Shown here piece after piece: positions 57,359-58,924 of a DNA stretch of 64,000 nucleotides. A program made the translations under genes and the position numbers. Source of the DNA: a virus; the IMG/VR virus record IMGVR_UViG_3300025132_008118; one strand, written 5' to 3'. The number at the start of each line of letters is the position of its first letter. Within the stretch, counting starts at the first letter, position 1. Below the pieces are notes generated by a model that was given only the letters and a program-made list of their open reading frames with translations, did not search any database and had not been told where the DNA came from.

Positions 57359-57775
57359 TTAAACGGTATACTTTTTAATATATTCCTCTTTCTTTCTTCG
57401 GGGAACGCTTACTCTAAGCATACCATCGGCATATTTGAACTTAATCTTATTTAGGTCATACTCTTTACCAATAGAAAAACTTCTATTGTATGTCTGAGTT
57501 TCTTCACTGTCATGTGTTAAGACGGATCTTTTACCTTCAATATAGACGTCTCTTCGTTCAGAATCAACCTTAAGGTCTAGATCATCTTTCATTACACCTG
57601 GTATGTCAATATCTACGTTTAGCCCATCTTCACGTTGAGCAAAACGAACTTGATCACCAGTTCTATATACTTCTTCCAAATTATGGAAGACAGGAGTTAT
57701 GTTAAAAAAGCCATTTAAGGCTTGTTCTATTTCATTTATGGGGTTAGTATACCCTCTTGTAGTTAGTTTAGTCAT
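57359..57775 (-). CDS. hsp20: Small heat-shock protein (Hsp20/alpha-crystallin)
   Basis: DIPGVMKDDLDL, YNRSFSI, YADGMLRVSVPR. Confidence 0.85.
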   Translation of the reverse strand: MTKLTTRGYTNPINEIEQALNGFFNITPVFHNLEEVYRTGDQVRFAQREDGLNVDIDIPGVMKDDLDLKVDSERRDVYIEGKRSVLTHDSEETQTYNRSFSIGKEYDLNKIKFKYADGMLRVSVPRRKKEEYIKKYTV

Positions 57776-57835
57776 AGAAAAATATTTAGTTATAAAATAA
57801 AAAAACTCAATAAATTTTGATTAAATATATATGAG

Positions 57836-57906
57836 TCGTTCATCTCTTTTAGAGATCTCTTTAAAGGAGACGGAAGTAAGAGACATAGTGTCCCTGAAGG
57901 AACGCG
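57836..57906 (+). ncRNA. Glutamine-I (glnA motif) riboswitch-like RNA
   Basis: P1 CGTTC/GAACG; 12-bp P2 TCTCTTTTAGAG-ATCT-CTTTAAAGGAGA; junction CGGAAGTAAG; P3 GACA-TAG-TGTC; TGAAG; TAAATA promoter at 57822. Confidence 0.82.
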
Positions 57907-57937
57907 TGAATTAAAAAACACGTACCAAAGGAAAATT

Positions 57938-58075
57938 ATGAATAAAACAATATGGAGAGGCTCCGAATACGATCTTAAAGCTAGATCGCAAAAGGTAGCT
58001 AAGCATACTGTACAAGGTATCTATAGAGGGGTAAAGCACCTTATCGATTTACCTAGTAAAAAAGTGAGAGTATAA
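57938..58075 (+). CDS. 45-aa basic YRG-motif (DUF4278-like) peptide (not in ORF track)
   Basis: MNKTIWRGSEYDLKARSQKVAKHTVQGIYRGVKHLIDLPSKKVRV*; SD AAAGGA upstream; terminator downstream. Confidence 0.75.
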   Translation: MNKTIWRGSEYDLKARSQKVAKHTVQGIYRGVKHLIDLPSKKVRV

Positions 58076-58095
58076 TAGCCTCGTAATTAAAGTTC

Positions 58096-58126
58096 AAGAG
58101 CTGATTCCGGAGTCAGCTCTTTTTTT
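58096..58126 (+). terminator. Intrinsic terminator after the YRG peptide gene
   Basis: AAGAGCTGA-TTCCGGAG-TCAGCTCTT followed by a T-run. Confidence 0.85.
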
Positions 58127-58130
58127 GTGC

Positions 58131-58162
58131 AAAAAAAAGGCGTAGCATATGCTACACCTTTT
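58131..58162 (-). terminator. Intrinsic terminator after the porin-like gene
   Basis: AAAAGGTGTAGC-ATAT-GCTACGCCTTTTTTTT on the minus strand. Confidence 0.8.
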
Positions 58163-58180
58163 AAATTATATTAGTTTAAT

Positions 58181-58924
58181 TTAAAAACTAAATGCTAAAC
58201 CAGCTGTAACTGATACATCAAAATCACCATCGGTACCTTCTGATGAAAGATCATTTACAATACCTAGATTATTCTTAAGAGCATTAACTTGAACAAAAAC
58301 TGGTAAGTCATTTGCTAAAGTATCAAATCTTACATAACCGTGTGTGTACTCAAGTTCATCATCGAGTCCAAATGATTGACCGTATTCAGCCCCTACAGTA
58401 ACGTCTACTGCATCACCTACTACAAAAGTCTTTGATACAACAAATGCAGGGGTAACAATCTTGCTATCATATTCTGAACCAACTTCACTACCATCTTCTA
58501 CAGCAACTGTAATAGATGTATCGAGCGATTCAAACCAGTTTAGGTCATAAGCACCATTCAATTCGAATGTAGTATCAGCACCTTCAATAGTATGCATTAC
58601 TACACGCGTATCGACACCACCAATAAACGTATTAAGATACGTTCCAAGTGAATAGTGCAGCTGATAGTCATCTGAATGAACGTACTCTAAACCTCCGACA
58701 AAAGAAAGACCAGCAAAGTCTCCTGCTTTAGTCGATGCTTTAAAGTAGCCCACATCCTGCGCCCCGTAAAGGCCGCCTGAAATGCGCTTTTCATAGTAAC
58801 CTGTGGTGACATCTACCTTCCAGGTCTTTTCTTGTTCTACTTCTTGAGCTTCTGCTTTACCGCACAATGCAAGATATGCAATGACAGCTACAGCAGCGCC
58901 AATAATAATATATTTCTTTTTCAT
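58181..58924 (-). CDS. Outer-membrane beta-barrel (porin-like) protein with signal peptide
   Basis: MKKKYIIIGAAVAVIAYLALCGKAEA signal; amphipathic strands; C-terminal GLAFSF. Confidence 0.75.
   Translation of the reverse strand: MKKKYIIIGAAVAVIAYLALCGKAEAQEVEQEKTWKVDVTTGYYEKRISGGLYGAQDVGYFKASTKAGDFAGLSFVGGLEYVHSDDYQLHYSLGTYLNTFIGGVDTRVVMHTIEGADTTFELNGAYDLNWFESLDTSITVAVEDGSEVGSEYDSKIVTPAFVVSKTFVVGDAVDVTVGAEYGQSFGLDDELEYTHGYVRFDTLANDLPVFVQVNALKNNLGIVNDLSSEGTDGDFDVSVTAGLAFSF

Follow-up and report, generated by a model that had tools for sequence, protein, structure and literature searches.

The 64,000 nucleotides of IMG/VR virus record IMGVR_UViG_3300025132_008118, here called the window, come from an uncultured T4-like marine phage and contain a type-I glutamine riboswitch (glutamine-I or glnA RNA, Rfam family RF01739) ahead of a gene for a protein of 45 residues with two YRG motifs. 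The aptamer can be identified with a covariance model, the open reading frame (ORF) is real, the unit is transcribed and conserved, and comparable units occur in many other marine viruses. The explanation which fits these data best, and which we consider quite likely, is that of a short unit in which glutamine would switch on the translation of a YRG mini-protein that would act on the nitrogen assimilation of the host.

The riboswitch and its gene

An Rfam scan of the whole window gave a match to RF01739 at 57835-57908 (+) with 48.3 bits (E = 1.7e-7; the gathering score is 35 bits), which spans the full model (positions 1-53 of 53) and is the sole riboswitch match in the window. When a region of 2.4 kb was rescanned locally the match was obtained with E = 6.2e-9 and no second aptamer was found. 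The sequence, the Rfam model and the predicted fold all place the three stems. P1 is formed by CGUUC (57837-57841) and GAACG (57900-57904), P2 is an unusually long hairpin of 12 bp (57843-57854 and 57859-57870), and in P3, which is extended as well, AGAGAC (57879-57884) pairs with GUCCCU (57890-57895) with one A.C mismatch. The three conserved junction blocks CGUUCA, ACGGAAGUA and GAAGGAACGC are all exact and the conserved C, C57905, stands immediately 3' of P1. The original prediction, made from the letters of the window alone, had seen in this RNA every hallmark of the glnA motif and had named the RF01739 model as the check; both the features and the score above the gathering threshold agree with it, and we take the glutamine riboswitch of this phage to be genuine.

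A small CGTG/CACG hairpin over the 3' side of P1 had also been noticed and is present at 57904-57923. In the predicted fold (G)CGUG (57904-57908) and CACG(U) (57919-57923) form a stem of 4-5 bp that overlaps the last pair of P1 and the conserved C57905. This linker hairpin is predicted in the unconstrained fold and in the aptamer-enforced fold alike. In the relatives described below and in a more divergent RNA contig (loose end at 57909) its stem is retained and its loop is variable.

The ORF (57938-58075, +, 45 codons in the ORF listing) starts 33 nt after the aptamer, a distance typical for the class, and encodes a basic, DUF4278-like protein with the motifs IWRGSEY (residues 5-11) and IYRGVKH (residues 28-34). 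Relatives of the peptide with 82-96% identity were found in eight marine-metagenome protein clusters, and on 18 contigs from different samples the gene order is constant: hsp20(-), the peptide gene(+), an ORF of 247 amino acids(-), an ORF of 76-78 amino acids and nrdB. Among the relatives 27 of the 132 ORF columns are variable; third codon positions account for 15 of these 27, and no change falls in the YRG motifs. The leader is variable in 10 of 125 columns, and seven variable positions lie inside the RNA, namely at the P2 apex, in the P3 loop, in the loop of the linker hairpin and just before the AUG. This coding-type variation, together with coverage by RNA contigs, bears out the prediction of a gene that the ORF annotation had missed.

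The RNA contigs stem from four metatranscriptome runs (three studies) and map within 57844-58083. They start at 57844-57854, finish at or before 58083 and cover the ORF; in the same runs no RNA contig was found on the spacer 57704-57839 or on 58112-58500. Because they are assembled and come from runs that had been picked for holding part of the stretch, they are moderate evidence of transcription, and being strandless and without true ends they give a weak hint as to where the transcript begins and stops. RNA runs with only minor portions of the stretch are uninformative on habitat.

The remaining parts of the unit were read from the sequence. A TAAATA box resembling T4-type late promoters is located at 57822-57827 (+), 9 nt upstream of P1, and is unchanged across the 18 related loci. 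In a late unit of the T4 type a TATAAATA-like box lies about 6-10 nt before the RNA start and transcription depends on gp55 and gp33. At a G+C content of 32% the box by itself says little, since TAAATA occurs 65 times on the + strand of the window and 76 times on the - strand. A set of 105 distinct viral leaders with glutamine riboswitches shows an enrichment of TAAATA shortly before the aptamer, with a peak at -12 (21 leaders) followed by -13 (eight leaders). Late timing of the unit is plausible, the box at -15 being its sole basis.

The ribosome-binding region (57927-57940, +) consists of AAAGGA at 57927-57932, a 5-nt spacer and the AUG at 57938, and thus contains the Shine-Dalgarno sequence that had been predicted. 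A Shine-Dalgarno-like 4-mer at -20 to -5 was found in only 8 of 71 ORFs in the window, the chance rate being 9.5%, and in 24 of the 71 a TAAATA begins 9-16 nt before the ATG. The scarcity of Shine-Dalgarno sequences and the closeness of TAAATA to the ATG fit mostly leaderless late mRNAs in this phage, and the gene is indeed rare here in having both a leader and a Shine-Dalgarno sequence. Downstream of the ORF an intrinsic terminator is present at 58096-58128 (+), in which a stem of 11 bp at 58096-58121 with four GC pairs closes a loop of 4 nt and is followed by a T run. One relative (L013) shows a compensatory change in this stem from GCUGA/UCAGC to GCUAA/UUAGC. Promoter-like box, leader, ORF and terminator form the self-contained unit that had been described.

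The predicted switch

According to the explanation we favour, a short monocistronic transcript would start a few nucleotides after TAAATA, probably at about 57833-57836, and would stop at the terminator. On this transcript the riboswitch would act as a translational ON switch for the 45-residue DUF4278-type protein with its two YRG beta-hairpins. When glutamine is scarce, the aptamer's 3' half would pair with three elements, namely the linker, AAGG in the ribosome-binding site and the start codon AUG; the masking half would comprise the CCU of the P3 3' strand, the GG of GAAGGAACG, the P3 loop CAUAGU and the ACG of P1. When glutamine is abundant, P1 and P3, together with a long-range pair of the conserved C57905, would lock the aptamer, upon which the alternative helix would melt and expose the start region. 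The mini-protein would then act on the nitrogen-assimilation machinery of the host, candidate targets being glutamine synthetase, in the manner of IF17, or partners of PII such as the ammonium channel AmtB. We infer the ON direction, the exact alternative helix, the late timing and everything that concerns the action of the peptide.

The unconstrained minimum free energy fold (-31.8 kcal/mol) has the start region masked. In the free ensemble the paired probability is 0.93-1.0 for the AGG of the Shine-Dalgarno sequence and 0.93-0.97 for the AUG with the three preceding bases. Enforcing P1, P2 and P3 together costs 6.4 kcal/mol and reduces the pairing of the start region to 0.21 or less. In the predicted mask CCU 57893-57895 pairs with AGG 57929-57931, GG with CC, ACG with CGU and the P3 loop CAUAGU with AUUAUG, and the same fold is predicted for three relatives (L005, L013 and L017). 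When the start region was combined with 80 foreign aptamers, its mean pairing was 0.27 as against 0.67 with the native aptamer.

We also compared the leader with the class. Over 81 viral leaders, pairing of the ribosome-binding site to the 10 nt that follow P1 is much stronger than with shuffled linkers (0.37 versus 0.18, p = 5e-14). The present leader differs in that these 10 nt are taken up by a hairpin of their own. For the gifB leader of Synechocystis sp. PCC 6803 a glutamine-ON translational switch has been established by experiment, and there the nucleotides that mask the ribosome-binding site are the conserved C on the 3' side of P1 and those which follow it (Klaehn et al. 2018, PMC6212724). 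Taken together, folding and comparison support, as a prediction, an ON switch whose expression platform is a variant one.

Several points weigh against this explanation. The TAAATA box lies at -15 and hence off the class peak of -12. The ribosome-binding site is paired to the aptamer body in only 5 of the 81 leaders, which makes the mask predicted here atypical. Exchanging the aptamers among the 81 leaders gave no class-wide signal of co-adaptation between P3 and the ribosome-binding site (0.159 native, 0.152 swapped); the mask of this leader is therefore lineage-specific or perhaps a folding artefact, and the alternative helix is known from predicted thermodynamics only. Since Shine-Dalgarno use in the phage is at chance (8 of 71 ORFs), masking of the AUG may outweigh masking of the Shine-Dalgarno sequence. 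Across the 18 related loci no covariation was found for this aptamer, since hardly any position of the leader varies among the relatives obtained. The nature of the RNA contigs and the score of the peptide against DUF4278 (see below) count on the same side.

The aptamer might also be real and exert no translational control of the ORF. It would then belong to a glutamine-sensing non-coding RNA, for instance a sponge or an element of stability or processing, or act by transcriptional regulation. Glutamine riboswitches have been described in the Pelagibacter (SAR11) phage Mosig and the OM43 phage Melnitz, where they were tied to the transfer-messenger RNA (tmRNA) gene, and for Melnitz this link was made with no peptide (Buchholz et al. 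2022, PMC9004378). That the linker hairpin itself is without a Shine-Dalgarno sequence points in this direction too, as does the chance-level use of such sequences in the phage. Against it, the substitutions in the ORF are of the coding type with invariant YRG motifs, the ORF follows the aptamer at the spacing typical for the class, and between aptamer and AUG there is no terminator-like stem with a U run. In Mosig, moreover, the aptamer directly precedes an annotated gene of 51 codons. We regard control at another level than translation as very unlikely and retain the translational ON switch.

The YRG peptide and the host

The original prediction had called the product a YRG peptide resembling DUF4278. 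Repeated [YW]RG-x-x-[YHW] motifs are found in it, in a short basic protein behind a glutamine riboswitch, and their layout is as in the DUF4278 family, with [YW]RG-x-x-Y close to the N-terminal end, followed after about 22 residues by I-Y-R-G-V-K-H. R7, G8, Y29, R30 and G31 are invariant in a peptide alignment (A2). Among the aligned riboswitch-linked YRG peptides from viral contigs 20 of 21 match DUF4278 (best 3e-9), a close relative (P0007) reaches 19.6 bits, and the nearest ESM Atlas clusters of the peptide are DUF4278. The peptide itself matches the Pfam model (PF14105) with 16.6 bits (E = 0.01), which is under the gathering score of 25.3 bits, so that strictly it is not a member. Similarity to the family is supported by the layout, the linked peptides and the ESM neighbours. 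An AlphaFold2 model of low confidence (predicted local distance difference test score 63) shows a helix flanked by two beta-hairpins, both of which have R-G at the turn. A search of the PDB sequences with the YRG profile returned chance matches only.

That the peptide regulates glutamine synthetase, as had been proposed, did not find support. Short DUF4278-only proteins are without the C-terminal IF17 residues that are crucial for glutamine synthetase binding (Klaehn et al. 2018, PMC6212724). The phage peptide has only two YRG units and ends 11 residues after the second YRG motif; the C-terminal region of IF17 and IF7 with the glutamine-synthetase-binding arginines is absent from it. The idea of a glutamine synthetase inhibitor is weak because DUF4278 is not the enzyme-binding part of IF17.

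Cellular relatives of the unit were found above all in the order of SAR86, a group for which RF01739 has been mentioned in passing (PMC12379486). The aptamer pattern occurs in cyanobacteria, SAR86, other marine Gammaproteobacteria, SAR116 and AT-rich alphaproteobacterial single-cell genomes. RF01739 scored above its cut-off in 51 of 101 SAR86-order genomes, i.e., the SAR86 single-cell genome AG-461-E16 (G002) and 100 of its order, with up to seven aptamers in a 1-Mb genome and with double and triple tandems, and in one of 101 Pelagibacterales genomes. In SAR86 and related Gammaproteobacteria the aptamers stand upstream of genes for glutamine synthetase, glutamate synthase and outer-membrane proteins; in the SAR86 order (loci L150, L166, L175, L177, L185, L200, L255 and L257) they precede, besides glutamine synthetase, the large and small subunits of glutamate synthase, a porin-like protein and a TonB-dependent receptor. 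A YRG peptide is encoded in 12 of 61 SAR86-order genomes, and at the five loci that were rescanned it follows a long-insert RF01739 aptamer of 35-48 bits. Of 10 such genomes, 8 have the cassette at most 2.5 kb from an ammonium transporter gene (amt); four of these 8 show it convergent with amt at a distance of about 115-170 nt, and in one of the four (G014; L282, G014:C1:88000-91500) the amt gene is part of glnK-amtB. As these genomes are kin, the synteny reflects few independent events.

The only Pelagibacterales genome with RF01739 is the Pelagibacteraceae metagenome-assembled genome CP.1 (L263, a 263-kb contig). Its aptamer precedes a peptide of 70 residues of the '...INGNGTSGYVVKNGPHKGKVLGH...' family, which is otherwise seen in viral contigs, and this cassette could be a prophage, a mis-binned contig or the result of a transfer.

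The YRG motif corresponds to the residues at the tip of the T-loop of PII, Y46-R47-G48-A/S-E50-Y51. The mini-protein could accordingly mimic the T-loop, each YRG hairpin copying the GlnB/GlnK tip Y46-R47-G48-x-E50-Y51, and would not inhibit glutamine synthetase; at high glutamine it would occupy a docking site of PII at the AmtB pore exit, at GlnD or at another PII receptor. The phage segment TIWRGSEY agrees with TSYRGSEY of a SAR86-order GlnK in 6 of 8 positions (pairwise E = 0.005), and a cellular YRG peptide (L239) agrees with the T-loop of the PII protein of its own genome in 11 of 14 positions (E = 2e-5). The proximity of the cassette to amt and the R-G at the turns of the two modelled hairpins would fit as well. 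These likenesses span only 8-14 residues, and the PII proteins were picked for comparison by ourselves. The Pfam P-II model does not match the YRG peptides, the synteny comes from related genomes, and the structural model is of low confidence. In PII, R47 is the residue that plugs AmtB and Y51 the uridylylation site. We hold this idea tentatively, as a possible though not a probable account of what the peptide does.

In its widest form the idea takes YRG mini-proteins in general, that of this phage included, as separate copies of the T-loop tip which would be made at high glutamine alone and would, for instance, plug AmtB or occupy GlnD. If the idea is true, the phage would take over the ammonium uptake and the PII signalling of its host late in infection. 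It would provide a first mechanism for the DUF4278 family and a new class of riboswitch-gated peptides that mimic a signalling protein. The adjacency to amt in SAR86-order genomes together with the T-loop match offers a concrete lead on the role of DUF4278/YRG mini-proteins. Should the lead hold, phages would interfere with the uptake of ammonium or with PII signalling in heterotrophs that are among the most abundant in the ocean.

As to the host, the best isolate matches of the phage are T4-like cyanophages (45% identity for NrdB, 33% for the major capsid protein and 30% for the portal protein). The unit might hence be an ordinary cyanophage cassette, in which a phage of Prochlorococcus or Synechococcus copied a gifB/IF17-like system to inhibit the glutamine synthetase of its host. 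Weak homologues of the peptide exist in the cyanophages P-SSM2, S-RIM32 and S-N03, in some cases near glutamine-I or -II-like aptamers, and a G+C content such as that of the window is in keeping with phages of high-light Prochlorococcus. The phage is, however, about as distant from cyanophages as it is from Aeromonas phages and from Mosig (30-45% identity), and at the DNA level there is no isolate match: searches of 50,697 phage records with megablast and blastn gave no meaningful match to the unit and its surroundings. The peptide scores 18-22 bits with the GIYRG[VTI]KH peptides of the SAR86 order and at most 16.8 bits with about 80 cyanobacterial IF17-like proteins; the SAR86-order peptides are its best cellular relatives within this sample, which is biased by the selection of loci. 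The lack of the glutamine-synthetase-binding part of IF17 in DUF4278-only peptides (PMC6212724) argues in the same sense. A cyanophage cassette seems rather improbable to us, and the host is probably not a cyanobacterium. The low isolate identities and the closer SAR86-order peptides speak for the view of the original prediction, which had suspected a host outside the cyanobacteria and is probably right in this.

Searches of SAR86-order genomes gave no other gene that links the phage to SAR86, for the 247-residue neighbour of the cassette in 41 genomes and for the capsid protein in 266. For the capsid protein only T4-like capsids of 33-37% identity were found, in 3 of the 266 SAR86-order genomes, and none in 401 Pelagibacterales genomes. 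The neighbouring gene (58181-58924, -) adjoins the cassette in all relatives and encodes a beta-rich, outer-membrane-like protein with a signal peptide and a C-terminal Phe, for which Pfam, PHROGs and NCBIfam gave no match. Back to back with the terminator of the peptide gene a second hairpin is located at 58133-58170 (-), GGCGTAGCATATGCTACACC between A and T runs, which is the terminator of this convergent gene. Sub-threshold Rfam matches at 58133-58170 (STnc40 and Plastid-psbA-1 3'UTR) were discarded as probably merely reflecting this terminator.

Comparison with known glutamine riboswitches

An exact-pattern scan of IMG/VR returned at least 120 viral contigs with the aptamer. Among the contigs listed, nearly all have an ORF of 28-65 codons 20-35 nt after the aptamer, many of them for YRG peptides, and about 10% of the leaders carry tandem aptamers. 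Behind the glutamine-I aptamers of contigs L023-L142 we distinguished at least six unrelated families of peptides of 28-65 residues: YRG repeats, W..C/YCR..LLKL helices, ...INGxGTSGY.VK.G..., ...DPRLQ[KG]I, MTKY..R.VKK...LP.YI..NP[FY]YP and MKTKNNWQLVLIK.... In Mosig (MT647606.1 92025-92250; L144:1330-1560 (-)) the RF01739 aptamer scores 50 bits, has CGUUU/AAACG as P1 and is located 8 nt after a TAAATA and 17 nt before Mosig_00116, the annotated 51-codon gene, the product of which ends with DDPRMQGI. Peptides of this type are also found behind aptamers in seven viral contigs (L030, L036, L058, L089, L092, L100 and L131). The riboswitch of Mosig looks like a peptide switch rather than a controller of the tmRNA, and it appears that what glutamine riboswitches of such phages control is a very small protein, rather than tmRNA or an enzyme of metabolism. 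As a side observation, the marine virus AG-345-E15 (MH319742.1, L001:1420-1881) contains a degenerate glutamine-I/II-like aptamer of 28-30 bits, below the cut-offs, which is followed by a YRG-like ORF and about 60 nt further on by a strong manA RNA (RF01745, 162 bits).

The unit is less of a novelty than the original prediction implied. The riboswitches of Melnitz and Mosig, phages of OM43 and SAR11, have been published (PMC9004378), as have glutamine riboswitches of cyanophages, and a great many viral contigs from the sea carry the cassette; the components and their occurrence in marine phages are already known and the phage lineage is new. A deep-branching uncultured lineage of T4-like marine phages, widespread in ocean metagenomes and expressed in metatranscriptomes, is hereby added to the phages that sense host glutamine by an RNA switch. 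What we consider useful beyond this are the new view of what phage glutamine riboswitches control, the link between the SAR86 cassettes and ammonium transporters and the testable idea of a T-loop mimic.

With Mosig and Melnitz the phage shares the T4-like marine myophage type, a host outside the cyanobacteria (probable in the present case) and the RF01739 aptamer, and with Mosig also the TAAATA box and a small ORF. It differs from Mosig in that the 51-residue product there belongs to another family than YRG and that the structural proteins are only about 30% identical. The paper on the two phages does not mention a peptide (PMC9004378).

The link of DUF4278 to glutamine riboswitches has been published for cyanobacteria (PMC6212724). 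Like the leader of gifB, the gene of IF17, the phage leader has an aptamer of the same family in a 5' untranslated region about 30 nt before the start codon, with YRG motifs of the DUF4278 type downstream. Unlike it, the present switch is borne by a phage, stands behind a TAAATA box of the T4 type and has a much longer P2 (12 bp) and P3, and the predicted mask is the P3/P1 3' half of the aptamer itself with a separate linker hairpin in between. The phage protein differs from IF17 in having 45 residues and two YRG hairpins only, without the C-terminal IF7-like part by which IF17 inactivates glutamine synthetase. The glutamine-II RNA (Downstream-peptide motif, RF01704) precedes IF17-like DUF4278 peptides in marine picocyanobacteria and cyanophages (Weinberg 2010, PMC2864571; Klaehn 2018, PMC6212724) and is likewise a glutamine-sensing leader ahead of a short conserved DUF4278 peptide. 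Its aptamer is of the pseudoknot type, whereas the RNA of this phage is clearly of type I.

The cassettes of the SAR86 order resemble the phage unit in having a long-insert RF01739 aptamer (35-48 bits, in the phage 48) directly before a YRG peptide. The cellular peptides, however, possess three YRG units and 52-67 residues and are usually encoded beside ammonium transporter genes, whereas the phage peptide has two units and a helix and its gene is located between hsp20 and nrdB.

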